Positions 8,591-57,445 of a DNA stretch of 64,000 nucleotides are shown here, one piece after another (within the stretch, counting starts at the first letter, position 1; every line of letters begins with the position of its first letter). A program made the position numbers and the translations under genes. The notes beneath the pieces are model-generated. The model was not told where the DNA came from. It saw only the letters and a program-made list of their open reading frames with translations, and did not search any database. The stretch comes from Spirochaetia bacterium (GTDB lineage Bacteria > Spirochaetota > Spirochaetia > SZUA-6 > Bin103), in the NCBI GenBank assembly GCA_965208575.1, contig CBDBOV010000006.1, positions 928,001 through 992,000 of the forward strand. Direction: 5' to 3'.

Positions 8591-8757
8591 AGGAGGTGAA
8601 GATGATACTGAAAGAACCGCACGCGCGCGCGGCGTGAGCCCGGGTGATCCCGCCGACTCACACGCCGCGCGCTGTCAGTGTATTTGGCTCTGACTGGCCG
8701 TCCGTGTAGCGGGCGCGAGAGTAGCCAGGGAGCGCCAATCCGCTACGCAATACTCTC
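8591..8757 (+). promoter_or_regulatory. Type-A SBP leader, copy 2 (uORF MILKEPHARAA* at 8602-8637)
   Basis: AGGAGG, ATG ATA CTG AAA GAA CCG..TGA, GAGAGTA 8717 / TACTCTC 8751. Confidence 0.8.
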
Positions 8758-8780
8758 GAAGTAACATTCAAGGAGAAACG

Positions 8781-10589
8781 ATGAAGGTATTCATTGCAAG
8801 GACCTTCGCGGTTGCGTTGGTCCTGATTCTGAGCGCAACCGGCCTCTGGGCTGGCGCTGGCACGGAAGAGGCGCCGGCAGCGGCGATGGAGAAGGAAATC
8901 GTGACCGACCCCACCACCGGCAAGATGGTGACGGCGCCACAGTACGGCGGGACATTGACCTTTCCGTATGCCTTGATAGGCGAAACTACCGACCCCTTTT
9001 TTACTGGCGGCTATGCGGGCATGCTCATAGGCGGTGTCAATCAGAATCTCGCCGTCCCGAACTGGGGTCTGGACAGGAACGAATTCGCCTTTAATGGGCC
9101 TAACGTCCCTCTGTTTACTTGGACAGAGGAGCTGGCGGAAAGCTGGGAGCAACCCGACCCGCTGACCTATATCATCAACGTCCGCCAGGGCGTTCACTAC
9201 GCCCTTGATCCAGACAGTGAGGCCAGCCGCCTGGTAGGTGGTCGAGAGCTAACTGCCGATGATGTCGTATTTAACTTTCACCGTCAGTTGGTGATGGGCG
9301 ATTTCACCGAACCTCCTCAAGAGACCAAACAAGCTTCCTTTCTGCCATGGGAATCGATAGAGGCCACCGACAAATACACGGTTGTTATGAAGTTGACGGA
9401 GCCAAACCTCAATGCGCTGCAGCTTATCATCACCGAAGTTGGGTTCTGGATATTGCCCCCCGAGGTAATCGAGAAATACGGCGACTATACGGACTGGAAG
9501 AACGTGGTCGGCACCGGGCCCATGATGCTGACCGACTACGTCGAAGGCGTCTCCAAAACCTGGACCAAGAATCCTGACTACTGGGGCTACGACGAAAAAT
9601 ACCCGGAGAACCGCTTGCCGTATCTTGACAAGTTAGTGGGCCTGTATATGGCAGAAGAAGCGACCCGTCTATCGGCACTGCGCTCGGGCAAGATTGATAT
9701 GACACGCCTCTCTGGTGCTGAGATACAATCCATCGACGTGGTAAAGAGCCTCCAGCGGACCAATCCCGAACTCGAGGTATGGCCATTTTACCAGCGCTCG
9801 TTGGATGCCATCATACTGAACATTCGCAAGCCGCCCTTTGACGACATCAGAGTACGCCACGCACTGCAGATGGCACTGGACCAGGAGACGATTAACGATA
9901 CCTACTTTGGCGGTTTCGCCGACTGGCACCCTCCTCGCTACATTGGCACCAAGGGGTATTACAACGAATGGGAAGAGTGGCCCGCAGAGCTCAAGGGATA
10001 CTACACCTACGACCCGGAAGGTGCCGAGAGGCTCCTTGATGAGGCAGGATATCCGCGCGACGCGGACGGCGTCCGATTCAAGTTCGAACATCTGCACCGC
10101 GACGTCGGAGATTTGGGCTATGTAGAAATAGTCGCCGGCTACTGGGCTGATATTGGCGTTGATGCATCGATCAGGGTTACCGACTGGGCGACTATAGCCG
10201 CTGCCAAGACAGAACATGACTATGAGTCGATTTATGGCTACATGGCCATAGAGTCCCCGGGCTGGGCCATGGGACATTATGGCGCGGATCTCCTTTGGCG
10301 AAGGGCACACCTGGGGGCCGGAGTCGAGAACCCTGTGCTGGCCGCCGCCCACGCTGCCTATCACGGTGCCACTAGCGTCGATGAGCAGATAAAGGCGGCA
10401 AAAGAGTTTGGTATGGAAGCAATAAAGCAGCACTTTCAGATATGGGGTCCTCTGGCTCCAAGGTATCAGCACAGCCATCCGTGGGTGAAAGGTTTTAACG
10501 GTGAAACCTTGAACACAGTCATGCATGAGCAAAGCGTCCTCGTCCGCCTTTGGATTGATAGTGAGCTGAAGGAATCCATGGGTTATTAG
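8781..10589 (+). CDS. ABC transporter substrate-binding protein, family 5
   Basis: LAESWE, GTGP, DIRVRHALQMALD, YDPEGAERLLDEAGY; signal peptide. Confidence 0.95.
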   Translation: MKVFIARTFAVALVLILSATGLWAGAGTEEAPAAAMEKEIVTDPTTGKMVTAPQYGGTLTFPYALIGETTDPFFTGGYAGMLIGGVNQNLAVPNWGLDRNEFAFNGPNVPLFTWTEELAESWEQPDPLTYIINVRQGVHYALDPDSEASRLVGGRELTADDVVFNFHRQLVMGDFTEPPQETKQASFLPWESIEATDKYTVVMKLTEPNLNALQLIITEVGFWILPPEVIEKYGDYTDWKNVVGTGPMMLTDYVEGVSKTWTKNPDYWGYDEKYPENRLPYLDKLVGLYMAEEATRLSALRSGKIDMTRLSGAEIQSIDVVKSLQRTNPELEVWPFYQRSLDAIILNIRKPPFDDIRVRHALQMALDQETINDTYFGGFADWHPPRYIGTKGYYNEWEEWPAELKGYYTYDPEGAERLLDEAGYPRDADGVRFKFEHLHRDVGDLGYVEIVAGYWADIGVDASIRVTDWATIAAAKTEHDYESIYGYMAIESPGWAMGHYGADLLWRRAHLGAGVENPVLAAAHAAYHGATSVDEQIKAAKEFGMEAIKQHFQIWGPLAPRYQHSHPWVKGFNGETLNTVMHEQSVLVRLWIDSELKESMGY

Positions 10590-10623
10590 AGGGGTTCACT
10601 CCCTGTGGCGTAGCTTGGGGAAA

Positions 10624-10658
10624 AAGGGAGCTGGGGGGTCAAACCGCCCGGCTCCCTT
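10624..10658 (+). terminator. Intercistronic stem-loop after SBP (stabiliser or partial terminator)
   Basis: aagggagctggg..cccggctccctt; homologs at ~17352, ~27782, ~51219, ~59310. Confidence 0.6.
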
Positions 10659-10730
10659 ACCCCTGGAGAGGGCAATGAGATTGCCCCGCCCCGATAGATC
10701 GGGGCTCGCAATGACGGGGAGGAGTGTGCC

Positions 10731-14378: not shown

Positions 14379-14419
14379 CTGAGCCAATGTACCGAAGCAG
14401 ATCCAAGACGTACAGTGTT

Positions 14420-14452
14420 TGCGGCGCAACTGCGGCGCAACTGCGGCGCATT
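14420..14452. repeat. 3 x 11-bp direct repeat TGCGGCGCA(AC/TT)
   Basis: Read directly; lies between divergent AlbA-RecG gene and higBA. Confidence 0.85.
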
Positions 14453-14542
14453 GCTGTCTAAGACGGCCGCTCAGCTCGATCGACAACGCGCCGTTGACAG
14501 ACGCTGCTTGTCATGCGAACGGTGTAGCCGTACGCTTGTGGC

Positions 14543-15137: not shown

Positions 15138-15329
15138 TAAGGAGCGGATAATTCGCACGCCCAGTGCCGGCAACGCGGGGTGCAGGCGTATCTGAACACC
15201 AAAGAACGCGTGGTTGACAGACTGCGACGGGCGGTGCATCGTGGCTTACTCGGGGTCCTGGACTCGTGCAAACGATGCGTGACCATAACACTCAGCGCTA
15301 CCACCAGTTGACGCAACCAGTACCCCCGT

Positions 15330-15527
15330 CCGGTCCGCGTACGAGGGGGTGCACGTGAAGAGGTAATCCATCCCGCGGCCCGCGATCGACGCCGTGGTCA
15401 ACTCGAAGCTGTCGCCCTCGTCGGAATCGCCTGCGCCGCACACGCGCGGACCGGCACACACGCCACGGGAACAGGCGAGGGAGCGGCACTTGAAGTGCGT
15501 GTTCTCGAAAACAGAGGAGATCAATTC
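15330..15527 (+). promoter_or_regulatory. Type-B SBP leader (SD + GTG AAG AGG TAA at 15355-15366; hairpin 15466-15507)
   Basis: Homologous to 57215-57445; degenerate promoter unit upstream (TTGACA 15214). Confidence 0.6.
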
Positions 15528-17315
15528 ATGAACCTTGTCACGTTCAGAACGTGCCTCGCCGTGCTGGCGAGCTTGGCCATTGCCGCAACCGGCGCCTGGG
15601 CCGGCGGCGAAGAGGAGCAGCCGGCCGCGGCGATGGAGAAGGAAATGGTGACCGACCCCACCACCGGCAAGGCGGTGACCGCGCCAGAGTACGGCGGGAC
15701 ATTGACCTATCCGTATGTCTTAATTGGCGAAACTACCGACCCCTTTGTTACTGGCCCCTATGCGGGCATGCTCATAGCCGGTGTCAATGAGAATCTCGCC
15801 GTCCCCAACTGGGCACTAGATAGGAAAGAATTCGCCTTCAATGGGCCTTACTTCCCTCTGTTTACTTGGACAGGGCAGCTGGCGGAAAGCTGGGAAACGC
15901 CCGACGACACAACGATCGTTTTCAACATCCGCAAGGGCGTTTACTGGCATAATAAGCCACCGATGAACGGTCGGGAGCTCACTGCCAACGATGTCGTATA
16001 TAGCCATCAGCGTATGTTGAGTCTGGGCGATTTCACCGAACCTCCTTTCCTAGCCAGGCCAGTTTACGAATTGCCATGGGAATCGGTAGAGGCCACCGAC
16101 AAATACACGGTTGTTATGAAGTTGAAGGAGCCAAAACTCGATGCGCTAGAGGGTATCATCACGACACCTGACTTCTGGATATTGCCTCCCGAGGTAATCG
16201 AGAAATACGGAGACTATACGGACTGGAAGAACGTGGTCGGCACCGGGCCCGTTATGCTGACCGACTACGTCGAAGGCGTCTCCAAAACCTGGACCAAGAA
16301 TCCTGACTACTGGGGCTACGACGAAAAATTCCCGGAGAACCGCTTGCCCTATATTGACAAGTTAGTGGGCCTGTATATGGCAGAAGAAGCGACCCGTCTA
16401 TCGGCACTGCGCTCGGGTAAGATTGATATGACACGCCTCTCTGGTGCTGAGATAAAATCCGTCGATGTAGTACAGAGCCTCCAGCGGACCAACCCCGAAC
16501 TCGCGATATGGCCATTTTACCTGCGGGCGGATGGCATCATACTGAACATTCGCAAGTCGCCCTTTGACGACATCAGAGTACGCCGCGCACTGCAGATGGC
16601 ACTGGACCTGGAGACGGTTAACGATACCTACTATGGCGGTTTCGCCCAGTGGCAACAACCTCGCTACATTGGCGCCAAGGGGTATTACACCCCATTTGAA
16701 GAGTGGCCCGCAGAGCTCAAGCAATACTACACCTACGACCCGGAAGGTGCTGAGAGGCTCCTTGATGAGGCAGGATATCCGCGCGGCGCGGACGGCGTCC
16801 GATTCAAGTTCGAACACATGCACCGTGACATCGCAGATTTGGGCTATGTAGAAATAGTCGCCGGCTACTGGGCTGATATTGGCGTTGATGCAGCGATTAG
16901 TGTTACGGACTGGGCGACTTTAGCCGCTGCTAAGTCAGAACATAACTATGAGTCGATTTATGGCTACATGGCCTGGGGGAACCTGACTTTCGGCATGGGA
17001 ATGTATGGCGCGGACCTCCTTTGGCGAAGGGCAAGCGTGGGGGCCGGAGTCGAGAACCCTGTGCTGGCCGCCGCCCAAGCTGCCTTTTTCGGTGCCACTA
17101 GCATCGATGAGCAGATGAAGGCGGCAAGAGAGTTTGGTATGGAAGCAATAAAGCAGCACTTTCAGATGTGGGCTCCTCTGGCTCCATTGTATCAGCACAG
17201 CCATCCGTGGGTCGTAGGTTTTAACGGTGAAACCATGCACTCAGTCTACCATGAGCAAAGCGTCCTCGTCCGCCTTTGGATTGATAGTGAGCTGAAGGAA
17301 TCCATGGGTTATTAG
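15528..17315 (+). CDS. ABC substrate-binding protein, family 5 (close paralog of 8781)
   Basis: Same motifs; GAGGAG RBS before ATG 15528. Confidence 0.95.
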   Translation: MNLVTFRTCLAVLASLAIAATGAWAGGEEEQPAAAMEKEMVTDPTTGKAVTAPEYGGTLTYPYVLIGETTDPFVTGPYAGMLIAGVNENLAVPNWALDRKEFAFNGPYFPLFTWTGQLAESWETPDDTTIVFNIRKGVYWHNKPPMNGRELTANDVVYSHQRMLSLGDFTEPPFLARPVYELPWESVEATDKYTVVMKLKEPKLDALEGIITTPDFWILPPEVIEKYGDYTDWKNVVGTGPVMLTDYVEGVSKTWTKNPDYWGYDEKFPENRLPYIDKLVGLYMAEEATRLSALRSGKIDMTRLSGAEIKSVDVVQSLQRTNPELAIWPFYLRADGIILNIRKSPFDDIRVRRALQMALDLETVNDTYYGGFAQWQQPRYIGAKGYYTPFEEWPAELKQYYTYDPEGAERLLDEAGYPRGADGVRFKFEHMHRDIADLGYVEIVAGYWADIGVDAAISVTDWATLAAAKSEHNYESIYGYMAWGNLTFGMGMYGADLLWRRASVGAGVENPVLAAAQAAFFGATSIDEQMKAAREFGMEAIKQHFQMWAPLAPLYQHSHPWVVGFNGETMHSVYHEQSVLVRLWIDSELKESMGY

Positions 17316-19140: not shown

Positions 19141-19300
19141 AGGAGGTCAAGATGATACTCAAAGAGCCGTGGGCGCGCGCGGCGTGAGCCCGGGTGAACC
19201 CGGCTGAGTCACACGCCGCGCGCTTTCCGAGAATTTGACTCAGACTGGCCGCCTGCGTTGCTCGTGGCCAGGGAGCGGAAATCCGCTCCGCAATACTCTC
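19141..19300 (+). promoter_or_regulatory. Type-A SBP leader, copy 3 (uORF MILKEPWARAA* at 19152-19187)
   Basis: AGGAGG + uORF + hairpin; 5' arm of the second outer stem is eroded. Confidence 0.8.
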
Positions 19301-19325
19301 GAAATAACATTCTAAGGAAGAAACG

Positions 19326-21122
19326 ATGAAGATATGTTTCACAAGGACCTTCGCGATTGCGATGGTCCTGATTCTGAGCGCGACCGGCCTCTGGGCCACT
19401 GGCGCAGAAGAGGCGCCGGCAGCCGCTGCCGACAAGAATTATGTGACCGACCCCGCCACCGGCAAGGTGGTGACCGCGCCCGAGTATGGCGCGACATTAA
19501 CCTATCCCGACCTGTCAAAGGCCGAGACTACTGACCCCTTTATTACTGGCCACCCTGCGACCCGTTTCATTGGTAGCGTTAATGAGAAGCTCGCCTGGGG
19601 GGACTGGTCAATAGATAGGGACCTGTGGGACTTTACAACCAATTTCAGCTATCCCACTGTTGCCACTACAGGGGGTCTGGCGGAAAGCTGGGAGCAGCCC
19701 GACGACACGACGATCGTCGTCCACGTCCGCCCGGGCGTTCACTGGCATGATAAGCCACCGATGAACGGTCGGGAGCTAACTGCCGATGATGTCGTGTATA
19801 CCTTTCAGCGTAATACCGTTCAGGGCGACTTCACCGAACGTCCCCTCAAGACTTACGAGTTGATCAACCTGCCATGGGAATCGATAGAGGCCACCGACAA
19901 GTATACGGTTGTCTTCAAGCTGAAGGAGCCATATCTCGGTGCGCTGAAGGCCATCCTCAGCGACATACAGGGTTGGATATTACCCCCCGAGGTAATTGAG
20001 CAATACGGCGACTATGCGGATTGGAGGAACGTGGTCGGCACCGGGTCCATTATGCTGACTGACTATGTCGAAGGCGTCTCTATTACCTGGGACAAGAATC
20101 CTGACTACTGGGGCTACGACCCAAAATACCCGGAGAACCGCTTGCCCTATATTGATCAGTTAAGGCTCCTGTACATGCCAGAAGAATCAACACGTCTATC
20201 GGCACTACGCACGGGTCAGATTGATATGATACATGCCGGCACGGCGGCGGTAAATACCCTCGACGTGGTAAAGAGCCTGCAGCGGACCAACCCCGAAGTT
20301 CAGGTGACCGGTTATTTCATGCGAGCGGTTGGGAGTTTCGGTCTGAACGTACACAAGCCGCCCTTTGACGACGTCAGGGTTCGCCACGCACTGCAGATGG
20401 CGCTGGACCTCGAGACGATCAACGATACCTACTTTGGCGGTTACGCAAAGTGGGAACCCATGGGGATGATAGGGTATGCCCTCCCGGAGTATTACACCCC
20501 ATTTGAAGATTTTCCCGAAGAGGTCAAGCAATACTACAGGTATGACCCGGAAGGTGCCGAGAAGCTCCTTGATGCGGCTGGATATCCGCGCGGCGCGGAC
20601 GGCGTTCGATTCAAGGTCAACTATGACCACGTCATCGCCGATGATTTAGGCTATGCAGAAATAGCTGTCGGCTACTGGGATGCGATTGGCGTTGATGTAG
20701 AGATCGATATGTATGACGGGCCTACTTGGTACAATCGTAGAAACGACGGTATTTATCACATGACCCTTGGCGACATGGGCTTTAATCTCAGCCCTTCAAT
20801 GTTGATAGGCTGGTATCGTGGGGGTGGACATGTCCGCCATTACATGGGCGGCGATGTCGACACCCCTGAGATGACCGCCGCCTATGAAGCCTTTTTCGCC
20901 GCTACCACCGTTGAGGAGCAGCAGAGGGCATTTAAGGAGTTTGACATGGCCATAATAAAGCACCACAATCAGATATATAGTCCTATGCGTCCAAGGTATC
21001 AGGTGGCGCAGCCGTGGGTCAAAGGTTATAACGGAGAATGGGAGCTGGAAATTGCGGGAGAACGTAGCGTCCTCATCCACCTTTGGATTGACCAAGATCT
21101 AAAGGAAGAAATGGGATTCTGA
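19326..21122 (+). CDS. ABC substrate-binding protein, family 5
   Basis: Family motifs, signal peptide. Confidence 0.95.
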   Translation: MKICFTRTFAIAMVLILSATGLWATGAEEAPAAAADKNYVTDPATGKVVTAPEYGATLTYPDLSKAETTDPFITGHPATRFIGSVNEKLAWGDWSIDRDLWDFTTNFSYPTVATTGGLAESWEQPDDTTIVVHVRPGVHWHDKPPMNGRELTADDVVYTFQRNTVQGDFTERPLKTYELINLPWESIEATDKYTVVFKLKEPYLGALKAILSDIQGWILPPEVIEQYGDYADWRNVVGTGSIMLTDYVEGVSITWDKNPDYWGYDPKYPENRLPYIDQLRLLYMPEESTRLSALRTGQIDMIHAGTAAVNTLDVVKSLQRTNPEVQVTGYFMRAVGSFGLNVHKPPFDDVRVRHALQMALDLETINDTYFGGYAKWEPMGMIGYALPEYYTPFEDFPEEVKQYYRYDPEGAEKLLDAAGYPRGADGVRFKVNYDHVIADDLGYAEIAVGYWDAIGVDVEIDMYDGPTWYNRRNDGIYHMTLGDMGFNLSPSMLIGWYRGGGHVRHYMGGDVDTPEMTAAYEAFFAATTVEEQQRAFKEFDMAIIKHHNQIYSPMRPRYQVAQPWVKGYNGEWELEIAGERSVLIHLWIDQDLKEEMGF

Positions 21123-25166: not shown

Positions 25167-25334
25167 AGGAGGTTCGAATGATACTCAAAGAGCCGCACGT
25201 GCGCGCGGCGTGAGCCGGGGTGAACCCGGATGAGTCACACGCCGCGCGCTCTTAGTGAATTTGACTCAGACTGGCCGTCTGCGTTGCGGGCATGAGAGTA
25301 GCCAGGGAGCGGCAAGTCGCTCCGCAATACTCTC
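25167..25334 (+). promoter_or_regulatory. Type-A SBP leader, copy 4 (uORF MILKEPHVRAA* at 25178-25213)
   Basis: AGGAGG + uORF; GAGAGTA 25294 / TACTCTC 25328. Confidence 0.8.
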
Positions 25335-25358
25335 GAGAATCAAGATCCGGAGTTACGC

Positions 25359-27161
25359 ATGAAGTTTGTAAAAATTAGAATGACCTTCGCGTTTGCGTTG
25401 GTCCTCGTAATGACCGCAACCGGCCTCTGGGCCGCTGGCGCAGAAGAGGAGCCGGCAGCCGCTGCCGACAAGAAGTATGTGACCGACCCCTCCACCGGCA
25501 AGGCGGTGGTGGCGCCAGAGTATGGCGGGACATTGACCTACGCCTCGCATAATATAGTTCCGCATACTGACGCCTATTTCCATCACCACCCGGGAGAACA
25601 TGTCTCCAGTGTTGTAGAGAAGCTTACTATGCTGGACTGGGCAGCGCCCAGGGACGTATTCAACATTAGAACACATACTTCAACCGCGCCTCTGTCTCTC
25701 TATAAAGGGCACCTGGCGGAGAGTTGGGAAAAGCCCGACGACACAACATTTATCTTCCACATCCGCAAGGGCGTTCACTGGCATAATAAGCCACCGATGA
25801 ACGGTCGGGAGCTGACTGCCGATGATGTGGTATATAACTATCACCGTATGACGGGTCTGGGCAGCGGCTTCACGGAACCCAGCCCCACTTGGACCGCAAA
25901 TTTGTACCTGGTCGAATCGATAACGGCCACCGACAAATATACGGTCGTCTTCAAGCAGACGAAGGTAGACCCCACTGCGCTGTTTACTTTCACTCAACAC
26001 ATGAATTGGATATACCCCCCCGAGGTCATCAAGCAACACGGCGACATGAAGGATTGGAGGAACTTGGTTGGCACGGGGCCCTATGAGCTGACTGACTGGG
26101 TCGAGGGCAGCTCTGTCACCTGGACCAAGAATCCCGACTATTGGGGATTCGATGAAAAATACCCACAGAACCGCTTGCCCTACGTTGACAGTGTAACGAA
26201 GCTGATTATGCCAGACGCGGCAACACGGCTGGCGGCACTGCGCTCGGGAAAGGTTGATGCCCTGGGTATGCCTTTCGGCGACAGTCAATTAGGGTCTATC
26301 GACCAGGTAGATAGCCTCAAGCGGACCAATCCCGAAATCGTGCTGGAGCCGATGTCATATCGGTCGGAAACGTCTTGGGTTGTTAACCCGAATGTACCAC
26401 CCTTTGACGACAACCGGGTGCGCCACGCACTGCAGATGGCACTGGACCTTGATTCAATTAACAATACCTACTGGAAGGGTTTTGCAGAAACGACACCTAT
26501 GGGGTATTTGGGGAGTGGTTTGGTCGGGTATGTCACCCCGTTCGAAGATTGGCCTAAAGAGATCAAGCAATACTACAGGTATGACCCGGAAGGGGCTGAG
26601 AAGCTCCTGGATGAGGCTGGTTATCCCCGCGGCGCGGACGGCATTAGATTCAAGACCGTTCTGGATGTGAGCGTACCATGGCAGGTTGCAGCCTATCACG
26701 AATTAGCTGCCTCCTACTGGGATGCGATTGGCGTTGATGTAGAGATTGTGGAGAACGACGGCCCTACTGTCCGTGCGAAGCGAAAGGAAGGTACTTTTGA
26801 GATTCAGGCTTTTATTTCGGGGAACGACTGGGACCCCCTGGAGCAGATTAAGCAGTTTTACACTCCTGCTGCTTCACCGTATAATACTCCCAACGTAAAG
26901 GATCCGGCTTATGACGCCCTGGTTGCACCGGTCTTAGCCGCCGATACCATTGAGGAGCGGCAGAGGCTGATTAAACCGGTAGAAAAGTACATTAATGAAC
27001 AGCACTGGTATATATGGGGTAGTCGAGTTCCACAGTTTCACGCGCTCCAGCCGTGGGTTATAGGTTACAACGGTGAAACCGGCCTGGGAGACATGGACCG
27101 TGTGGTCCTCCTTGCCCGCCTCTGGATTGATAGTGAGCTGAAGGAAGCAATGGGTCATTAG
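25359..27161 (+). CDS. ABC substrate-binding protein, family 5
   Basis: Family motifs. Confidence 0.95.
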   Translation: MKFVKIRMTFAFALVLVMTATGLWAAGAEEEPAAAADKKYVTDPSTGKAVVAPEYGGTLTYASHNIVPHTDAYFHHHPGEHVSSVVEKLTMLDWAAPRDVFNIRTHTSTAPLSLYKGHLAESWEKPDDTTFIFHIRKGVHWHNKPPMNGRELTADDVVYNYHRMTGLGSGFTEPSPTWTANLYLVESITATDKYTVVFKQTKVDPTALFTFTQHMNWIYPPEVIKQHGDMKDWRNLVGTGPYELTDWVEGSSVTWTKNPDYWGFDEKYPQNRLPYVDSVTKLIMPDAATRLAALRSGKVDALGMPFGDSQLGSIDQVDSLKRTNPEIVLEPMSYRSETSWVVNPNVPPFDDNRVRHALQMALDLDSINNTYWKGFAETTPMGYLGSGLVGYVTPFEDWPKEIKQYYRYDPEGAEKLLDEAGYPRGADGIRFKTVLDVSVPWQVAAYHELAASYWDAIGVDVEIVENDGPTVRAKRKEGTFEIQAFISGNDWDPLEQIKQFYTPAASPYNTPNVKDPAYDALVAPVLAADTIEERQRLIKPVEKYINEQHWYIWGSRVPQFHALQPWVIGYNGETGLGDMDRVVLLARLWIDSELKEAMGH

Positions 27162-35928: not shown

Positions 35929-36060
35929 AAGGCGGTTCAACATGGTACTCAAAGAGCCGTAGGCGCGCGCGGCGTGAGCCGGGGCGAACCCGGATGAGTC
36001 ACACGCCGCGCGCTCTCAGGAACTTGACTCGGACTGGTCGCCCGCGTTGCGGGCGCGAAT
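35929..36060 (+). promoter_or_regulatory. Type-A SBP leader, copy 5, degenerate (MVLKEP*; second hairpin deleted)
   Basis: SD AGGCGG; codon 7 TAG; GAGAGTA..TACTCTC block absent. Confidence 0.75.
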
Positions 36061-36083
36061 AGAGATCGACACAGGAGCTATGT

Positions 36084-37904
36084 ATGCAGATTGTACAATT
36101 CACAAGGACCTTCGCGGTTGCGTTGGTCCTGATTCTGACCGCAACCGGCCTCTGGGCCGCTGCCGCAGAAGAGGAGCAGGCAGCCGCTGCCGACAAGAAG
36201 TACGTGACCGACCCCACCACCGGCAAGGTGGTGGTGGCGCCGCAGTATGGCGGGACATTGACCTTCGTCATGAAGGTGGAGCCTCCGAGTGCTGACCCCG
36301 CGTTCGGCGCTGGGTCGTCAAGGGGCGCCGATGGTGTTGCAGAGAAGCTAGGCATCATGAACTGGGGACTAGATAGGGACGAATGGGACTTCACAAGTTT
36401 CTCCTTCCCTTTCTCTGTCTATAAAGGTCACCTGGCGGAAAGCTGGGAAATGCCCGACGACACAACCATCATCTTCCACATCCGCCAGGGCGTTCACTGG
36501 CATGATAAGGCACCGATGAACGGTCGGGAGCTAGATGCATACGACGTCGAATACAACTATCACCGCTATTTGGGTCTGGGCAGCGGCTTCACCGAACCGC
36601 CTGAAGGCTACGCTGGCTCACTCAAAGGCATGACAATATTCGAATCGGTAGAAGCCACCGACAAATGGACGGTTGTTGTTAAGCTGAAGCGGCCACAGGT
36701 CGCGGGGTCGGTGACTCAGACTACCATCGGCGACTGGCCTGTTTTTATGATGCCCCCTGAGGTAATCAAGGAACACGGCCACGTTAAGGATTGGAGGAAT
36801 CTGGTCGGCACCGGGCCCTATATGCTGACTGACTGGCTCGACGGCAGCTCTATGACCTGGGAAAAGAATCCTGACTACTGGGGCTTCGACGAAAAATATC
36901 CGGACAACCGCCTACCCTATATTGACCAGTTAAGGGGCCTGATTATGACAGAAGCCGCAACAATTCTGGCGACACTGCGCACGGGTAAGGCTGATTACGT
37001 AGGTCTCGCTGGCGCCGCTGAATCCGTCTATATCAAGGACCGAGAAAGCCTCAGCCGGACCAACCCCGAAATCGAATGGTACCCGTGGGCGTATAGGTCG
37101 GAAAGTTCTTTTGGTTTCAACATGGGCGGAGGCGAGGCGAGACCGCCCTTTGACGACGTCAGGGTGCGCCAGGCAATGCAGATGGCACTGGACCTTGAGA
37201 CGATTAACAATACCTTCTTTAGGGGTTTTGCCAAGTGGCAGCCTCGGGGCATGATAGGGGATGGCGTCAAAGGGTATAACACCCCATTTGAAGAGTGGCC
37301 CGAAGAGGTCAAGAAAGCCTATATGTATGACCCGGAAGGGGCAGAGGCGTTGCTTGATGAGGCTGGCTATCCGCGTGGCCCGGACGGCACGAGATTTAAG
37401 GTCGCCCTGGGACACTACGAGTTCTTCAGTTTAGACTATACACAATTAGCTGCCGCCTACTGGGCTGACATTGGCGTTCATGTCGACACTACCGTAAGGG
37501 ACCGAAGTGCTCATATTGCTGCTGAACGTGAACATACTTACGGAGATATGGTCACTGCGATTGCTGGCAACGACCCTTATGGCCCTCTCCTCCCGCTTGA
37601 ATGGTATTACTCAGGAGGCTACAGGAACCCCGCGAATCTCAACGATCCCGAATACGACCTCCTGTATGAAGCAGCCCGAGACGCTACCACCCTTGAGGAG
37701 CAGCAGAGGGCGGTTAAAGAGGCGGATATGTGGCTTATAAAGAACCACTTGTATGTATGGGGTCCTATAGATCCAAGGTTTGTCGCCATCCAGCCGTGGC
37801 TCATAGGCTATAACGGTGAATTAATGTTAGGACGGGATGACCGTAAGGCCTTGTTCGCCCGGCTCTGGATTGATAGTGCGCTGAAGAGAGAAATGGGCTT
37901 CTGA
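36084..37904 (+). CDS. ABC substrate-binding protein, family 5
   Basis: Family motifs. Confidence 0.95.
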   Translation: MQIVQFTRTFAVALVLILTATGLWAAAAEEEQAAAADKKYVTDPTTGKVVVAPQYGGTLTFVMKVEPPSADPAFGAGSSRGADGVAEKLGIMNWGLDRDEWDFTSFSFPFSVYKGHLAESWEMPDDTTIIFHIRQGVHWHDKAPMNGRELDAYDVEYNYHRYLGLGSGFTEPPEGYAGSLKGMTIFESVEATDKWTVVVKLKRPQVAGSVTQTTIGDWPVFMMPPEVIKEHGHVKDWRNLVGTGPYMLTDWLDGSSMTWEKNPDYWGFDEKYPDNRLPYIDQLRGLIMTEAATILATLRTGKADYVGLAGAAESVYIKDRESLSRTNPEIEWYPWAYRSESSFGFNMGGGEARPPFDDVRVRQAMQMALDLETINNTFFRGFAKWQPRGMIGDGVKGYNTPFEEWPEEVKKAYMYDPEGAEALLDEAGYPRGPDGTRFKVALGHYEFFSLDYTQLAAAYWADIGVHVDTTVRDRSAHIAAEREHTYGDMVTAIAGNDPYGPLLPLEWYYSGGYRNPANLNDPEYDLLYEAARDATTLEEQQRAVKEADMWLIKNHLYVWGPIDPRFVAIQPWLIGYNGELMLGRDDRKALFARLWIDSALKREMGF

Positions 37905-44558: not shown

Positions 44559-46349
44559 TTAGTTCAACTCGGCCTTGAGCTGACTATCGATCCACATGCG
44601 CGCGTAGGGCCCATTCCAGGCGCAGTTGCCGATCGCCATCTCGCCGTTGTAGCCGACGATCCATGGCTGCGCAATGTTGAACGCTGGAACCCGCGGACCA
44701 TAGATGTAGGGGTGCTGCTCGATGACGTACATGTCGAGCGCCTTCGCCAGCCGTCGGTGCTCCTCCGCGTCACCAGCGGCAGCATCCAACTCGTCATATT
44801 TGGCCTCGAACACCGGGTCGCTAAAGGTGCCGGCCCTGTAGCTTGAGTCGTCGCGAAACTGGCCGAGAGTAGAGGCCATCTGCCCGTAGTCAGCGCCGAC
44901 GGCCCAGAAGTCTTTCAGTCCGTCGAAATCCAACGCCGCGCGCCGTCCCTCGTACGTGGCGCTGTCCACCGCCTCGATCTCGGCCTCCACGCCGATCTCC
45001 TTCCAGTAGCCGGCTACCAGCTCCATGTAGCCCACGTCGCTCCGGTCGACTCTGGTCAGGATCGAGGTCTGAAAGCGGACGCCGTCCGCGCCGCGTGGGT
45101 ATCCGGCCTCATCGAGCAGTCGCTCGGCACCCGCCGGGTCGTAGGACCAGAACTTCTTGAGTTCCTCGGGCCAGGTATCGAAGGGGTTGTTGTAACCGAT
45201 CACCGCAGGCCCGATCGACCCCGTCGGCTGCCAATCGCCGAAGCCATAGTAATAGTTGTCTGTGACGGTCTTCAGGTCGAGCGCCATCTGCAGCGCGTGG
45301 CGCACCCTGATGTCGTCAAGGGGAGGCTTATCCATTCTCATCCCCAACGACGTCTCCGATCGGCGCGCGATCGGGAAGAGCTGCATGCCCGGGACATCTT
45401 CCTGGAGCTGCACCGCGTTGGCGATCGACTTGATCAGCACGTTACCGGTCGCCCCGGCGATATCGATCTGGCCCGACCGCAGTGCCGCAAGAATGGTCGC
45501 CTCGTCGCTCATGAACAGCATCACGAGCTTGTCGGCGTAGGGCAGGCGGTTCCCCGGGTACTTCTCGTCGTCCTTCCAGTAGTTGGGGTTCCTGTCCCAC
45601 GTGATCGAACTGCCGCTGACGTACTCGTTCACCATGAAGGGCCCGGTGCCGATCAGGTTGTTGACGTTGCCGAGCATGTCGAAGGTCTCGGGCGGATATG
45701 CCCGGACGTGGCAGTCGTCGAACAGTTGCCGATGGGTGTCCGCGTTCGGCCGCGACAGCTTGATCACCAATGTCAGCTTGTCGGTGGCCGTTACCGACTC
45801 GAAGGGCAGGGCTTTTGTTCCCCAGGTATGCACCGCGGGCTCCTGGCCGGCAAACCTGCCGATGCCGAACAGGCGCTCGTAGTTGGCGGCCATATCGTCA
45901 GCGGTAAACTGGCGACCGTTCACCGGCGGCTTGTCGTGAAAGAACACATTGTCGCGCATCTTGTAGATGTAGGTCAACGGATCCGGGTTCTCCCAGCTCT
46001 CTGCCAGGTGGTCGCTGACGACGCTCTCGGGATAGTAGGTCACCATTTTGTTGACGCTGCGGTCGACTGCCCAGTCGGCTTGGCCCAACTTGTCCAGAGC
46101 CGCTCCCGCGTACACTCCGCCGGCGTGGCTGATCCAGGTGTCGGCGTGGTCAAACCCCAAGGGTCGCTGCGCAACGGTAATGGTCCCGCCGTACGCCGGC
46201 TTGAGCACCTGCTTGCCGGTGGACGGATCGGTCACGTACTCCTTCTCGACGGCCATCGCCGCCTCGTCTTCGCCAGCGGGGCTGGCGAACGTAACGGTAG
46301 CCACCAGCGCGACCGCCAGTGTCATGAACCAAAGGAATCGAAGAGCCAT
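44559..46349 (-). CDS. ABC substrate-binding protein, family 5 (high-GC, different leader)
   Basis: GGGGGAG RBS + MALRFLW signal; family motifs. Confidence 0.93.
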   Translation of the reverse strand: MALRFLWFMTLAVALVATVTFASPAGEDEAAMAVEKEYVTDPSTGKQVLKPAYGGTITVAQRPLGFDHADTWISHAGGVYAGAALDKLGQADWAVDRSVNKMVTYYPESVVSDHLAESWENPDPLTYIYKMRDNVFFHDKPPVNGRQFTADDMAANYERLFGIGRFAGQEPAVHTWGTKALPFESVTATDKLTLVIKLSRPNADTHRQLFDDCHVRAYPPETFDMLGNVNNLIGTGPFMVNEYVSGSSITWDRNPNYWKDDEKYPGNRLPYADKLVMLFMSDEATILAALRSGQIDIAGATGNVLIKSIANAVQLQEDVPGMQLFPIARRSETSLGMRMDKPPLDDIRVRHALQMALDLKTVTDNYYYGFGDWQPTGSIGPAVIGYNNPFDTWPEELKKFWSYDPAGAERLLDEAGYPRGADGVRFQTSILTRVDRSDVGYMELVAGYWKEIGVEAEIEAVDSATYEGRRAALDFDGLKDFWAVGADYGQMASTLGQFRDDSSYRAGTFSDPVFEAKYDELDAAAGDAEEHRRLAKALDMYVIEQHPYIYGPRVPAFNIAQPWIVGYNGEMAIGNCAWNGPYARMWIDSQLKAELN

Positions 46350-47029
46350 AGTGCTCCCCCTTGTTTCGGGACCTCGGGTCTGCGACCCGTTGCCCGGGTT
46401 TTTGGTTTTCGCCGGTAACACCGGCTTTCTTGCGGGGTGGTGGTGGTGGCGCGCCGGCGGCCGCACGGGCGTGAGGGGCGCTGGGTGTGGATGTCTACGG
46501 GAGTGGCCGCGCTGTCGGCGCAGGCAACGGCGGAAGAATCGCGGGCGCGGCCAGGTGCGCCGTTCGGGCTTTCTAGGCTGCTCTGTAAATCTCGGGGGAG
46601 GGGGGGTAGGCGAGGATAGAACGAACCGGCTGCGTTGCCGCTAGGAGCTTGTCGGCTTCGCCGACGAGGTCCGAGCGTACGGGTGGGATGGGCCCCCCGC
46701 TTCGCGTCCCTGCGCGCCGACGCCTCGGGCGTCGGTCTTTCGGGCGCTAACCGGTGGCAGTGCTGAGTAGTGTTACCACGTGTCCGTAGCATGCGTTCAG
46801 ACCCGTTACGCCTACCATGGCACACCTGTGGCAACCACGTCAATAGGTCCGGCCAACGACACGTCCGCATTCGTCCGCCTGACGCGCCACTGTGGAGCGA
46901 CCCGACTCTGTGGTACACTGGAGCGCGCTCAACGGAGGGAAACGAGTTCCATGACCGAACGGTCCCGGACTACTGTCGAACTTGGAACGCTGGTTTCTCA
47001 TTAAACCTGAGTATAGAAAGGAATTGTCC

Positions 47030-51276: not shown

Positions 51277-53091
51277 CTAATTTCCCGTCATTTCTTTCTT
51301 CAGCGCACTATCGATCCAGACGCGAGAAAAGTGGGCATGACGGTCAGTGAAGCCAAGACCCATTTCACCGGCAAAACCCTCCACCCACGGCTGGCTCGCG
51401 GAAAAAAGGGCGGAGCGTGGTTTAACTAGGCCATAGTGCTCCCTTACAGAGATTTCATCGGCCTGTCGCTGATAGCCAATATGCTCCTCCGTGTCCGTGG
51501 TTTCAACGGCGGCATAATACAGGGCTTCGATACGCGGATCGTCCGCTTTTGTGGCGCTACTGTTATCAATGTTCTGGATCGCCTGACCTACCTCTTGTAG
51601 TCTTCCGCGGTAGGATCCATATCCAGCGCCCCATATCTCCCACTCCACCGTGTCCGCGCGAAAGGCAGCTCCACCCTCAGCTTCGCTATGAATATTAAGC
51701 TCGCTATCAACGCCAATGGCGTCGAAGTAACCCATGACGATTTCTACATAGGTCGGATCGTACCTCACGAGATTGCTCACCGTGATCTTGAATCTATAGC
51801 CGTCGTCGCCGCGAGGATATCCGGCCGCATCGAGCAACGCTTCTGCTTCATCCGGTCGATACTCATACTCACGCTTGACCTCGTCGGGCCACTCTTCATA
51901 AGGCCAGGCATACCCTTTGGCAGTTTGATGGAATATCCCATAAGGTGATGGATCTGCCCAACCCTTAAAGAAGGTAGCGGAAATTGCTTCGCGGTCCACT
52001 GACATCTGCAGTGCCTTGCGCACATTGATGTCGGCAGTGAGCGGACGAGATTGATTAAATACCAAGGTGCCCGGTATGAAGCTATATGCGGGCCACACCT
52101 CGAGTTCAGGATTGCTCTTCTGGAGGCTCTCTAGATTGTCGAGATTCGTTATGTGAGCGTCACCGGTGTTACTCAGCATATCAATCCTGCCCGTGCGCAA
52201 TGCTGCCAGACGTGTTGACTCGTCCGGCATCTTCAGGGCCCGTAACTCGTCAATATAGGGCAGGCGGTTCCCGAATTTTTCATCAACACCCCAGTAGTTG
52301 GGATTCTTCTCCCAGGTTGCCGAGCTGCCCTCGACGTGGTCGGTCAGTCGATAGGGGCCGGTGCCGACCAGGTTCCTCCAGTCCTCAAAGCCACCTTCTT
52401 CCTCGAATACCTCGGGGGGGTATATCCAAACCATGCTGTGCAACAGCGACTGCACCACATTCACCTGAGGCCTCGTCAGCTTGAGCTCAACCGTCCATTT
52501 GTCGGTGGCCGTTACAGAGAGGAACTCCAGATTATAAACTATGGAACGCTGGGGGCTAGGTCCGGCTTCGGCGAAATCACCCAGACCAAAATAGCGGTGA
52601 AAGTTCCATACGACGTCATGAGCATCGAACTCCCGACCGTTCACCGGCGGCTTATCATGCCAGTTAACGCCCTGCCGGATGTTCCAGATGAACGTCGTGT
52701 CGTCGGCCATTGACCAGCTTTCGGCCAGACCGCCTCTGTACATCTCCGGGCCCGTATAATCCCAGTTCATGGTACCGTGCTTTTCCCTGGGTAGTGCCCA
52801 GTCGGCAATGGTCATCCTCTCTATAACGCTACTGATGAAGTGAGGCGCCCAGCCACCCGCCGACCACACGTCAGTACTCTCAGGAAAGTTCCTGGTGGCC
52901 CAGGTGAGTGTCCCGCCATACTCTGGCGCGGTCCACGTCTGGCCGGTGGCGGGGTCGAACACCGTCTCTCTGTCGGCTGCGGCGGCGGCTGCCGGCTCCT
53001 CGTCTGCGCCGGTGGCCCACAGGCCGGTCGCGGTCAGCATCATGACCAGCGCAACCGCGAAGATCATTCTGATGCTTACGATATATTTCAT
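51277..53091 (-). CDS. ABC substrate-binding protein, family 5
   Basis: Family motifs; ATG 53091. Confidence 0.95.
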   Translation of the reverse strand: MKYIVSIRMIFAVALVMMLTATGLWATGADEEPAAAAAADRETVFDPATGQTWTAPEYGGTLTWATRNFPESTDVWSAGGWAPHFISSVIERMTIADWALPREKHGTMNWDYTGPEMYRGGLAESWSMADDTTFIWNIRQGVNWHDKPPVNGREFDAHDVVWNFHRYFGLGDFAEAGPSPQRSIVYNLEFLSVTATDKWTVELKLTRPQVNVVQSLLHSMVWIYPPEVFEEEGGFEDWRNLVGTGPYRLTDHVEGSSATWEKNPNYWGVDEKFGNRLPYIDELRALKMPDESTRLAALRTGRIDMLSNTGDAHITNLDNLESLQKSNPELEVWPAYSFIPGTLVFNQSRPLTADINVRKALQMSVDREAISATFFKGWADPSPYGIFHQTAKGYAWPYEEWPDEVKREYEYRPDEAEALLDAAGYPRGDDGYRFKITVSNLVRYDPTYVEIVMGYFDAIGVDSELNIHSEAEGGAAFRADTVEWEIWGAGYGSYRGRLQEVGQAIQNIDNSSATKADDPRIEALYYAAVETTDTEEHIGYQRQADEISVREHYGLVKPRSALFSASQPWVEGFAGEMGLGFTDRHAHFSRVWIDSALKKEMTGN

Positions 53092-53115
53092 GGTTTTCTC
53101 CACAAATGTGTTCTT

Positions 53116-53284
53116 GAGAGTATTGCGGAACGGATTGCCGCTCCCTGGCTACTCTCGCGCCCGCAACGCAGACGGCCGGCCAGACAGAGTCAGATTTGTG
53201 AAGCGCGCGACGTGTGACTCACCGGGTTCACCCCCGCTCACGCCGCGCGCGTGCGGCTCTTTGAGTATCAATTTGCACCCCCTC
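53116..53284 (-). promoter_or_regulatory. Type-A SBP leader, copy 6 (TTG-ILKEPHAR; 2-nt deletion shifts past the usual stop)
   Basis: GAGGGGG SD, TTG at 53271, both hairpins present. Confidence 0.75.
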
Positions 53285-55266: not shown

Positions 55267-55367
55267 TTGTTGTTCGCCACCTCCACCAGAACACACAGTT
55301 ACCTTCAACCCTTCAACTCTCCATGGGCGACCGTCTGCGCGACGCCGCGGACCCCTACAAGGAAGCG

Positions 55368-56459
55368 CTACCGTAACGCGGGCGGCAGGTCGAGGCCGAA
55401 GCGCTCGGCGGCGGCGCGCAGCTTGGCGACCGTGCCGGGGGGCAGCGGGATGCCGCCGGCGGTACGCTCGGCCAGCACCTGCTCCTCCGGCTGGCCCGGC
55501 ACCAGGATCGGCGGCGCGCCGTCCACGGTGGCCAGCCCGTTCATGGCGTCGGCCAGCCGGTCGACGTCGCCCTTGAACGCCTCCACGTCGGTGAACGCGG
55601 CGATGTCGATGGCGGCGACGAAGCTGTTCTGGGTGGCGCGGCGCGGGGCGTCCCGGCCGCTGATCGTGGTGGCGAGCAGCGGGTTGCCGGCCATCAGGCT
55701 CGACAGGCACTCGAAGATCAGCGCCAGACCGTAGCCCTTGTAGCCGGCGGCGGGCCGCAGGAAGGCCGACTGCGCCGGGTCGGTGGTGGGCCGGCCCTCC
55801 GCGTCCAGCGCCCACTCCTCGGGAATCGCCACCCCCTTGTCGCGCGCCACGTCCAGCTTGCCGCCGGCCGCCACGCTGGTGGCCATGTCCAGGCTGATCG
55901 CGGGCCGGCGCGAACCGGGCACGGCGACCGCGATCGGGCTGTTGTGGGTGCCAGCCTGCTTCGCCCCCGGCGGCGCCATGTTGGGCGGACTGCACACCAC
56001 GGCCAGACCGGCCAGGCCGGCCCGCGCCGCCATCTGCGTGTAGTAGGCCATCGCGCCCTGGTGCGTGGTGTTGCGGATCAGACCCCAGCCGATCCCCGCC
56101 TCCCGCGCCTTGGCGATGACCCGCTCCATCGCCTGCACCGTCACCACCGGACCGAACGCGCGGTCCGCGTCCATCAGCACGGTAGCCGCGGTCTCCCGCT
56201 CCACCCGGATGTTCGGGCGCGGGTTCATGGAGCCGCTGTCCACCGCCCGGCTGTAGGCCGCCACCCGCTGTACCCCGTGCGAATCGATGCCGCGCAGGTT
56301 GGCCCACACCAGCACCTCCGCCTCCGTGGCGGCATCGCCGGCCGGCATGCCGAGCCCCTCGAACACCCGTGCCGTGAACTCCTGCAACGCCGCCGCATCG
56401 ACGCACCGCGTCTCCGCCGCCGGGTCGACGCTCGCCCCCTCCGTGAACCGATACTGCAT
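55368..56459 (-). CDS. Ldh_2 family (malate/L-lactate/ureidoglycolate-type) oxidoreductase
   Basis: RGIDSHG, HQGA, NSPIAVA, LDMATS, YKGYGL, VPG. Confidence 0.9.
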   Translation of the reverse strand: MQYRFTEGASVDPAAETRCVDAAALQEFTARVFEGLGMPAGDAATEAEVLVWANLRGIDSHGVQRVAAYSRAVDSGSMNPRPNIRVERETAATVLMDADRAFGPVVTVQAMERVIAKAREAGIGWGLIRNTTHQGAMAYYTQMAARAGLAGLAVVCSPPNMAPPGAKQAGTHNSPIAVAVPGSRRPAISLDMATSVAAGGKLDVARDKGVAIPEEWALDAEGRPTTDPAQSAFLRPAAGYKGYGLALIFECLSSLMAGNPLLATTISGRDAPRRATQNSFVAAIDIAAFTDVEAFKGDVDRLADAMNGLATVDGAPPILVPGQPEEQVLAERTAGGIPLPPGTVAKLRAAAERFGLDLPPALR

Positions 56460-56483
56460 CCTTCCCCCGCCGGCAGAATAGCA
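56459..56483. repeat. 25-bp direct repeat, left copy
   Basis: tccttcccccgccggcagaatagca identical at 63026-63050. Confidence 0.85.
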
Positions 56484-56889
56484 CATCAGCGACAGCACGC
56501 CATCGCTCGCGCGCAGCGAAGCTCGCGTACCGCCGCGCAGGACCAAATGCGACGTACCGCACCATTGCGCAGCGCCGATCATCAGGATTGCCGGCCACCG
56601 CAAGCTGGAACAAGTCGGGGGCAACGGCGACCCTGACGGTCCTTGACTCTGTCAGAGGTGCGGGCAGTGTCGGAGCACTCGGGCAGCGCTCATGGCTCTA
56701 GGATATGTGGCGGCTCACGCCTCGGGAGTCTTCAAGGAGTTGGAAAAGCTCCACCAATTATTCGCACCCGTAGTCTCGTGGTCCCAGGAAGTTCGCTGGC
56801 ATATTCTGATCAACGATGGGACACTCGCACCGACGACCGGGAATGCGTTTACGAGTGGTGCAGACCTTATTTCCTCGCTCGCAATTCGC

Positions 56890-57020
56890 GCTGTTTGACA
56901 GGTGGCCGCGCTCGTGAGAGAGTGCACCGTTAGAGGTTTGACGGATCGATGATGACGCGTCATGACGACATTCAGCGCAATAACCGGCTGGCGGTGACGC
57001 GACCGGTGCCCCCCCCCGCA
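56890..57020 (+). repeat. Promoter unit (TTGACA 56895) + poly-C
   Basis: Closest to unit at 22788. Confidence 0.7.
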
Positions 57021-57214
57021 GCTTCAGTAGCGTAAATCTTTCAAGCGTAAACAGTAATACCAACCACTGGCGGCCCTCGTTATCGGGCGCCTCCGCGCGC
57101 GTCGACCACCGCAGACCACTACCCGCCATCTCCAATCCCCCGGCGTTGCCGGACATGGGAACAAGCCACCGGCGAGTCGCCGCCACGCCTCCGGTCGGCG
57201 TGCGCCTGCGACCA

Positions 57215-57445
57215 ACCGGTCCGCTTACGAGGGGGTGCCCGTGAAGTTGTAGTCCACACCACGGGACGCGGTCGACGCCCCCGCGGTGATCGCCCCCGGG
57301 TCAACTCGAAACTCGAAGTCGTCACCCTCGTCGGAAACAACTGCGCCGCACCCACACCCGGCACAGACCGGCACACAGGCCTTGAGAGCAGCCCGGGGGT
57401 CGACACCGAAGTGTGCTCTCAAAGCATAGGAGCATAGGAGTACGA
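57215..57445 (+). promoter_or_regulatory. Type-B SBP leader (SD + GTG AAG TTG TAG at 57241-57252; hairpin 57382-57422)
   Basis: Homologous to 15330-15527; TTGAGAGCA/TGCTCTCAA stem. Confidence 0.6.

Follow-up and report, generated by a model that had tools for sequence, protein, structure and literature searches.

The window analysed here is a stretch of 64,000 nucleotides from a Spirochaetia bacterium (positions 928,001 to 992,000 of contig CBDBOV010000006.1, assembly GCA_965208575.1; G000:C6:928001-992000 in the handles used below). Its source, genome G000, measures 6.5 Mb at 67% GC and is 95% complete. The window holds nine paralogous genes for solute-binding proteins (SBPs) of about 600 residues each, here called A to I, with starts at 482 (-), 8781, 15528, 19326, 25359, 36084, about 46349 (-), 53091 (-) and 57446. 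The two that were scanned with Pfam belong to SBP_bac_5, and permease genes follow both. Mutual identity among the proteins is 39-63%, except for B and C at 78%. A tblastn search of the whole genome yields 139 SBP loci, of which 124 reach 1400 nt or more, and blastn with one class of 5' leader, type A, gives about 57 matches at 70-92% identity. The subject of this report is a structured RNA element in these leaders whose core reads as a pseudoknot. The SBP_bac_5 genes that bear it open operons for ABC importers of the peptide type.

One helix of the element, an outer stem called P3 here, was read directly from the DNA. In four type-A leaders it is GAGAGTA/TACTCTC, with arms at 541-548/506-513 (-), 8716-8723/8751-8758 (+), 25293-25300/25328-25335 (+) and 53150-57/53115-22 (-). 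Two leaders of a second class, type B, spell it TTGAGAGCA/TGCTCTCAA at 57382-90/57414-22 (+) and, with one G.U pair, CGGGAACA/TGTTCTCG at 15466-73/15500-07 (+). A sequence-only reading of the window had named these six sites, and the stem is present at all of them, ending 8-31 nt before the SBP start codon. Directly after the 5' arm comes a G-rich segment at each site (GCCAGGG, GGCGAGGG or GCCCGGGGG). The same reading placed this segment inside the stem as an internal element; it does recur at every site, but as the 3' strand of a long-range helix, P1. Its partner is a complementary C-rich segment 30-60 nt upstream, and the two vary together. Proximal P1 pairs read directly are CCCTCGC/GCGAGGG, CCGTCGC/GCGACGG and CCCGCGC/GCGCGGG, and the distal continuation joins TGCCG or TGTCG with CGGCA, GTGCC with GGCAC and CAGTCG with CGGCTG. 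The consensus is TGYCG-CCCTCGC with GCGAGGG..CGGCA. In type A the helix is short (CTGGC/GCCAG), and subclass A2 has TTGCCGY/RCGGCAA together with CTG/CAG. Further leader classes with the same core were found among SBP genes that have neither a type-A nor a type-B leader.

P3 (CGAGAGTR/YACTCTCG) has its 5' arm inside P1 and its 3' arm outside. In all classes the strands run in the order P1-5', P2 hairpin, P3-5', 0-1 nt, P1-3', a loop of 8-15 nt, and P3-3'; three leaders have an extra hairpin between P3-5' and P1-3'. Loop L2 is thus 0-1 nt, and L3, of about 8-15 nt, spans a bipartite P1 of 12-14 bp; with such lengths the simultaneous formation of both helices is sterically plausible. As read from the sequence, the leader core is an H-type pseudoknot of two interleaved helices with a variable hairpin, P2, in loop 1, and the motif first noted would be the 3' half of this knot in the 5' untranslated region (UTR) of SBP_bac_5 genes. 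A hairpin that looks riboswitch-like can be half of a pseudoknot, its partner strand lying outside the obvious motif. The Shine-Dalgarno sequence (SD) of the SBP gene follows in an A-rich linker 3' of the knot. The leader of gene B (type A, 8591..8783, +) displays the whole arrangement: an upstream SD at 8591-97, a mini upstream open reading frame (uORF) at 8602-8637 encoding MILKEPHARAA and a stop, a hairpin P0 at 8625-8672, P1 5' at 8694-98, P2 at 8699-8715, P3 5' at 8716-23, P1 3' at 8724-28, a class-specific hairpin P4 at 8729-46, P3 3' at 8751-58, the SBP SD at 8771-76 and the ATG at 8781.

The inner hairpin is a different matter. It had been described as one stem that changes sequence and stays paired, and this did not hold. 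In type A it reads GGAGCGG/CCGCTCC, and 19 of the 57 scored rows break its top pair. In type B it is GCACT/AGTGC or ACAC/GTGT and overlaps the distal P1 3' strand; no counterpart is seen in most other classes. Since the two hairpins stand in different columns of the core alignment, they do not form one covarying helix, and the inner hairpin is particular to its class, without homology between types A and B.

The fold is shown by covariation in three alignments. The first (A5) is a structure-blind MAFFT alignment of 26 non-A leaders from seven genomes. P1, P2 and P3 together are paired in 86.4% of its cells, against 36-47% when the 3' partners are slid by 1-3 columns, and double-sided changes occur in 14 of 30 pairs, against 1-10 in the slid controls. 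None of 500 shuffles attains the observed score, a count that overstates significance and is not a probability, because a single genus supplied every row and related sequences lack independence. By helix, proximal P1 is 96.7% paired, distal P1 78.1% and P3 93.6%. The second alignment (A6) holds 62 matches in 47 distinct rows and was built with a covariance model that contained P1 and P2, not P3. It was therefore fitted to the first two helices, and in general the tested structures were derived from the same sequences. Here 87.5% of cells pair (proximal P1 95.7%, distal P1 80.7%, P2 78.7%, P3 92.0%) and 21 of 30 pairs are changed on both sides. Within P3 double-sided changes fall in five of nine pairs, e.g. 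UA:31/CG:13 and GC:22/AU:14/GU:4. The third (A7), a MAFFT alignment of 58 type-A rows, a few of them partial or in fact non-A, varies little; 92.2% of cells pair, with 18 of 45 pairs doubly changed against 7-14 in slid controls. P3 in it is 91.6% paired, with a double change in five of eight pairs, and there are many C/U exchanges opposite G, e.g. CG:30/UG:26 and CG:28/UG:25 in P2. Over all three alignments the slid controls are 36-50% paired.

P1 and P3 are each supported independently by these comparative data, and the covariation that the sequence-only reading saw in its outer stem is borne out in non-A and type-A rows alike. G.U cells outnumber A.C cells by 104:36 in A6 and 122:59 in A7, an excess that fits an RNA read from the sense strand. 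Together with position and orientation, this upholds the idea of a structured sense-strand cis RNA common to otherwise dissimilar leaders. Helix sequences are more conserved than loops, e.g. GAGAG/CUCUC is near-invariant and L3 variable. Counts for the P3 core in A6 are G-C 46/46, A-U 46/47 and G-C 44, and the flanking pairs covary. Two other routes to the structure gave less. An unconstrained search for the best interleaved helix was too noisy in DNA of 67% GC, returning many spurious pairs, and anchored alignments were used instead. RNAalifold on a gappy 58-row type-A alignment recovered only parts of P0 and P2.

The motif is tied to SBP genes and to one genus. Searches used R1, a covariance model of the core with 47 positions from 22 seeds and the outer stem as its nine pairs, and R2, a longer model. 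For each genome 150 candidates were scored (150 of 3676 first-look candidates in G000), so the R1 count in G000, at least 74 places at E<=1, is a lower bound. No more than 175 nt separates 71 of these 74 from a tblastn SBP locus downstream on the same strand, and one further match precedes a 628-residue protein with Pfam SBP_bac_5 (3.6e-50), which brings the tally to 72 of 74 upstream of SBP_bac_5 genes on the same strand. The refuting outcome named by the sequence-only reading, hits independent of gene starts and orientation, was not observed. One match (22 bits, E 0.43) is a false positive within a repeat of a coding sequence. Downstream open reading frames (ORFs) tested in several genomes were SBP_bac_5 in six of six cases. 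An orphan leader at G000:C4:1281664-1281731 (-) has a good core (48.6 bits with R1, 46.6 with R2) and an SD, but no ORF longer than 150 residues follows; the SBP gene it once served has probably been lost. The motif stands at 71 of the 124 full-length tblastn SBP loci (57%), so the claim that it serves a whole importer family was too broad.

Six of ten congeneric genomes have R1 matches, at a minimum of 76, 31, 108, 40, 7 and 5 places. None was found in 30 genomes outside the genus, 13 from the sister genus and 17 from seven other families of the order. R2, run over a class-wide sample of 151 genomes, matched three of four congeners as well as G000 and none of the 86 other genera. Metagenome contigs scanned for two patterns, one a type-A core of 22 letters and the other a degenerate class-C core of 24, contained no match. 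A 16-letter degenerate core was also compared with genome contigs; among the 80 matches listed most are from unrelated phyla and look like chance, and the one 'Spirochaetaceae' row among them (L104) has no R2 match. Rough first-look counts of SBP_bac_5 candidates are 169-226 in G000, G001, G003, G005 and G006, 54-61 in two congeners without leader matches and 5-57 in the sister genus, i.e. they peak in genomes with many leader matches.

The knot is one module of a 5' cassette of 200-350 nt comprised of a strong SD, a mini-uORF, the pseudoknot, the SBP SD and the signal peptide. The mini-uORFs have 1-4 codons, or 11 codons reading MILKEPHARAA, and with an SD, a start codon and a short ORF ahead of the structure these regions look like uORF leaders. 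In type A, conservation starts abruptly at AGGAGGT, followed 5-7 nt on by ATG and the 11-codon frame. A script count finds uORF starts in 47 of 54 anchored rows (44 ATG, 2 TTG, 1 GTG), and 41 type-A rows encode 11 residues, mostly MILKEPHARAA. The changes CTC/CTG and GAA/GAG are synonymous, as are most changes in the MILKEP part. The type-A stop codon falls in the 5' arm of P0, a long GC hairpin whose base pairs are kept at 94-96%. Insertions or deletions shift the uORF frame in the leaders of gene H and of loci L041, L221, L212 and L214, and three of these frames read to a TAG in the P3 5' arm. Type B has GAGGGGGTG and a three-codon GTG frame. In a third class, C, conservation extends over more than 330 nt, with (A/C)AGGAGGTG and then M, MSM, MSK, MRN, MQN or MEN, each followed by a stop. 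An SD pattern matches 16 of 21 class-C leaders, with uORFs of 1-3 codons except one of 20; the remaining five read CGGAGGT, which the pattern missed. In class C some 6-20 nt (script distances, approximate) separate the stop from the distal P1 5' strand that follows it, except that one frame extends to a TAG inside the P3 5' arm; for types A and B the corresponding distance to P1 is 44-57 nt.

The cassette has been reassorted among genes, and exchange of the module outpaces the divergence of the genes themselves. It is copied before at least 72 paralogs in G000. Among 32 genes of type A1 mean pairwise identity is 76.8% in the leader and 76.8% in nucleotides 1-75 of the coding sequence (CDS), which encode the signal peptide, versus 58.6% in the mature CDS. 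Genes B (8781-10589) and C (15528-17315) are 78% identical in their mature parts, and their leaders and signal peptides are type A and type B, respectively. Their similarity begins at a low-complexity EE.PAAAMEKE linker, which may be a recombination hot spot. In a FastTree phylogeny built from the mature portions of 118 paralogs the leader class changes 47 times, against a possible minimum of 6 and a mean of 68 (minimum 59) in shuffles; as some type-B leaders were labelled A1 by the pattern, 47 is, if anything, too low. Several starred sister pairs on this tree differ in leader class. Between species the mature CDS is 94-99.6% identical and the leader (-160..-1) at the orthologous locus 74-84% (L057, L053, L064, L070, L054). 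At L054 the CDS is 99.6% identical to its ortholog, and the leader is 84.4% identical to the ortholog's versus 87.6% to that of a paralog. The CDS of L063 shares 92.7% identity with a gene of G000; the L063 leader is of class C and that of the G000 gene of type A. L072 displays the reverse pattern, with a leader at 98.9% and a CDS at 79.8%. Because leader and body histories are discordant, the leader with its signal peptide and the mature body are separate recombination units.

The reading preferred here, tentatively and at a little short of even confidence, is a cis-acting translational or stability leader, either ribosome-coupled or constitutive. The fold would act in cis after transcription, on SBP translation initiation or on the lifetime of the mRNA. 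It would hold two pyrimidine tracts resembling anti-SD sequences (CCCUC and CUCUC) in helices and leave the real SD open. Ribosomes on the uORF would perturb it, those terminating at the mini-uORF reaching a P1 strand in class C or melting P0 in type A, and SBP output would be tied to translational status and not to a metabolite. Several points weigh against this. When the P3 5' arm is blocked in partition-function folds of 67 leaders, modelled SD accessibility drops by more than 0.2 in only nine, and its median goes from 0.42 to 0.35. The script finds no canonical uORF start in 7 of the 54 type-A rows, one of them through a misplaced anchor. The distance from uORF stop to P1 in types A and B means that any coupling there would be indirect, and the uORF may lie outside the mRNA. 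Much of the identity between copies could stem from gene conversion rather than selection, and the kinship of the aligned rows has been noted. On the supporting side, leader DNA (e.g. 15326-15466) is covered by contigs that a single study assembled from four sponge metatranscriptome libraries; they give no starts, strand or levels. Bins 13372-14639 have no cover in any of the four runs, which hints that the libraries are not simply DNA and proves nothing. A separate candidate, an anti-SD switch in which the P3 3' arm pairs with the SD once P3 opens, was rejected on the nine-in-67 accessibility result.

Conservation of the helix letters beyond what pairing needs, with a near-invariant P3 core between covarying flanks, would suit an operator for a factor acting in trans, an RNA-binding protein or small RNA (sRNA) that reads GAGAG/CUCUC and CCCUCGC/GCGAGGG and makes 70-100 importer genes one post-transcriptional regulon, perhaps by analogy with ribosomal-protein leader pseudoknots that trap the 30S subunit. 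The same core recurs in leader classes that otherwise cannot be aligned, and restriction to one genus is what a lineage-specific regulator predicts. However, helix-core invariance is explained equally well by shared descent and gene conversion, and no candidate factor was found, a complementary sRNA not having been searched for. CsrA (PF02599) was not found in the 95%-complete G000 with control genomes positive, and a CsrA/RsmA operator was rejected on that basis. Such an operator is rated somewhat unlikely. The sequence-only reading had itself proposed ligand or protein binding, and its ligand half fares worse. A covarying pseudoknot adjoining the SD of transporter genes, similar in size to the small riboswitches preQ1 and SAM-II, could be the aptamer of a metabolite or second-messenger riboswitch in which ligand-dependent folding opens or closes the importers' ribosome-binding site (RBS), and the local hairpin of types A and B competes with part of P1 and could be the switch. 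Yet loops and junctions vary, with no invariant unpaired block seen at the shallow depth of one genus, and the twenty leaders searched against Rfam have no match at E<=1. The leaders read have no visible terminator and no U-run after P3, the SD is outside the knot, and its weak modelled occlusion provides no expression platform. It is hard to see why a single ligand should serve about 70 diverged binding proteins, and up to 108 matches per genome within one genus is unlike what is known of riboswitch classes. A riboswitch is quite unlikely.

The case that the RNA has no function at all is very unlikely. By this account recent duplication and gene conversion have spread a promoter, leader and signal-peptide cassette, and the inverted repeats are DNA-level features (an operator or a recombination substrate) or incidental GC-rich hairpins. 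The cassette clearly recombines, as the diverged leaders at near-identical orthologs, the class changes on the tree and the one ortholog pair with different leader classes attest, and spurious helices abound in GC-rich DNA. Against it, compensatory changes keep four helices paired across classes with little shared sequence, and the slid-partner controls pair at barely half the cells or fewer. The G.U excess over A.C, about 2-3 fold, is left unexplained by DNA duplexes or protein half-sites. A bolder reading, itself unlikely, makes the pseudoknot a ligand-, ribosome- or factor-responsive sensor that places 70-100 importers per genome under one post-transcriptional signal, with leader classes as alternative 'channels' reassigned by cassette recombination. 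If true, this would be modular, RNA-based rewiring of a symbiont nutrient-uptake regulon.

At the gathering score the only Rfam 15 matches in the window are two to group II introns, and the leader is a candidate RNA family missing from Rfam. No paper on this leader element was found in those parts of the literature on sponge spirochaetes, SBPs, structured RNAs and riboswitch candidates that were available. Several known systems bear comparison. Small H-type pseudoknot riboswitches (preQ1-II/III, SAM-II) act on translation, and like the present knot they combine two interleaved helices in a 5' UTR with an additional loop hairpin, near the SD of a transporter or biosynthesis gene; here, in contrast, the SD is outside the knot, loops are variable, Rfam has no match, and there are 5-108 matches per genome in a single genus. 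The leader pseudoknots of rpsO/S15 and the alpha operon/S4 also lie beside the RBS, could control initiation without a terminator, and have helix sequences conserved as if read by a partner, but the genes regulated here would be binding proteins and not the regulator itself, and CsrA was not found. The ermC, cat and trp-type attenuators and 'start-stop' mini-ORFs share a strong SD and a very short ORF upstream of a structured leader, with the uORF stop within or just before a helix strand. Here there is no terminator and no regulatory codon run in the leaders read, any coupling is putative, and the peptide varies by class (MILKEPHARAA, or M, MRN and MKR each followed by a stop). Recombining promoter, leader and signal-peptide cassettes of surface or binding proteins, such as vlp/vsp of Mycoplasma, likewise have a 5' module ending at the signal peptide or linker that is common to paralogs and exchanged among them, whereas the module here holds a pseudoknot supported by covariation and common to cassette classes of divergent sequence. 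The STAB-SD of Bacillus cryIIIA mRNA is alike in having a near-perfect SD (AAGGAGGTG here) far upstream of the real start with no real gene after it; here, however, a start codon and mini-ORF follow. RNase J is the nuclease that STAB-SD blocks. RNase J (TIGR00649) was not found in G000, and this interpretation of the upstream SD was set aside.

The component kinds (pseudoknotted 5' leader, mini-uORF, recombining 5' cassette) are all known; what is unusual is how they are combined, how many copies there are and how fast they reassort. Should the fold control expression, a single RNA module peculiar to this lineage would govern over half of the importers in uncultured sponge symbionts that have an exceptionally large set of them. 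It would also offer a compact natural system for studying how structured leaders, mini-uORFs and signal peptides evolve jointly and how a symbiont adjusts its nutrient scavenging.

The remaining leaders of the window can be grouped by class. Genes A, E and H have type-A leaders. The gene A leader (480..671, -) has its SD at 665-671, uORF at 625-660, P0 at 589-637, P1 5' at 566-570, P2 at 549-565, P3 5' at 541-548, P1 3' at 536-540, P4 at 518-535, P3 3' at 506-513, SBP SD at 487-492 and ATG at 480-482. For gene E (25167..25361, +) the SD is at 25167-73, the uORF at 25178-25213, P0 at 25201-49, P1 at 25271-75/25301-05, P2 at 25276-92, P3 at 25293-25300/25328-35, P4 at 25306-23 and the ATG at 25359. 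For gene H (53089..53283, -) the SD is at 53277-83, P0 at 53203-50, P2 at 53158-74, P3 at 53150-57/53115-22, P1 3' at 53145-49, P4 at 53127-44 and the ATG at 53091; its uORF has a TTG start and a 2-nt deletion that shifts the frame, which runs to the TAG in the P3 5' arm.

Two type-A leaders are exceptions and natural variants. Gene D (19141..19328, +) lacks the outer-stem 5' arm through a deletion of that P3 arm and the 3' half of P2, and keeps a mini-uORF at 19152-19187, P1 at 19245-49/19266-72, P4 at 19272-89, P3 3' at 19294-19301 and the ATG at 19326. Gene F (35930..36086, +; ATG 36084) lacks the entire pseudoknot core, from the P3 5' arm through the P3 3' arm, and retains P0, P2 and a uORF encoding MVLKEP and a stop. 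Three relatives of F also lack the core. The SBP genes are intact in all of these variants.

Type B includes genes C and I. In the gene C leader (15343..15530, +) an SD-like sequence lies at 15343-51, a three-codon uORF at 15355-66, P1 5' (TGTCGCCCTCG) at 15410-20, P3 5' at 15466-73, P1 3' (GCGAGGGAGCGGCA) at 15475-88, a local hairpin at 15486-98 overlapping the distal P1 strand, P3 3' at 15500-07, the SD at 15515-20 and the ATG at 15528. The gene I leader (57229..57448, +) is not among the R2 matches at E<=0.001. It has an SD-like sequence at 57229-37, a three-codon uORF at 57241-52, P1 strands, paired by eye, of GTCG-TC-ACCCTCG at 57318-30 and CGGGGGT-CGAC at 57394-57404, P3 5' at 57382-90, a local hairpin at 57403-14, P3 3' at 57414-22, the SD at 57436-41 and the ATG at 57446. 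Gene G has a leader of another class (46349..46466, -) with no R1 match, which serves as a contrast within the window. This class (about 46349-46466, -; some 12 loci, e.g. G000:C6:499277-534369) lacks the motif and reads ACGAGGAGGAGTnnnnnATGACTCC, so that the SD can pair with the first codons.

Other features of the leaders accompany these classes. A small hairpin encloses the start codon of many type-A SBP genes, with the SD in its loop: CATAC-GGAGnnAC-GTATG (8759-8783; also G000:C4:502390 and C4:508877). Variants CATCG/CGATG and CATAG/CTATG keep the pairing, and for about a dozen leaders the modelling predicts an AUG that is nearly all paired. At class-C loci L051-L082 (e.g. L076, L075 and L064) a poly-C tract that varies from about 9 to 30 C precedes a conserved TTTATACGACAAGCAATAA block, at some 300-330 nt before the start of the SBP gene; the tract could be slippage-prone and in or near the promoter. 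A hairpin of the CCGGCGTTGCCGG type with a GTT loop recurs upstream of several leader classes (53220-53240 region, -, and many G000 SBP loci), and type-A P2 (CGCCYGC-GTT-GCGGGCG) has the same GTT loop. The two group II introns, Rfam D1-D4-6 matches of 110 and 176 bits at 8360-8553 (-) and 24910-25129 (-), immediately precede the leaders, both type A, of genes B and E. The flank of the introns contains GGGTCGCTAACCCTTCGACGTATGACTC and then a GCCGG..CCGGC hairpin; it is also found before five or more further leaders of type A, from three genomes (L213, L217, L228, L230 and L036), and the introns seem to adjoin a hairpin at the 5' border of the cassette.

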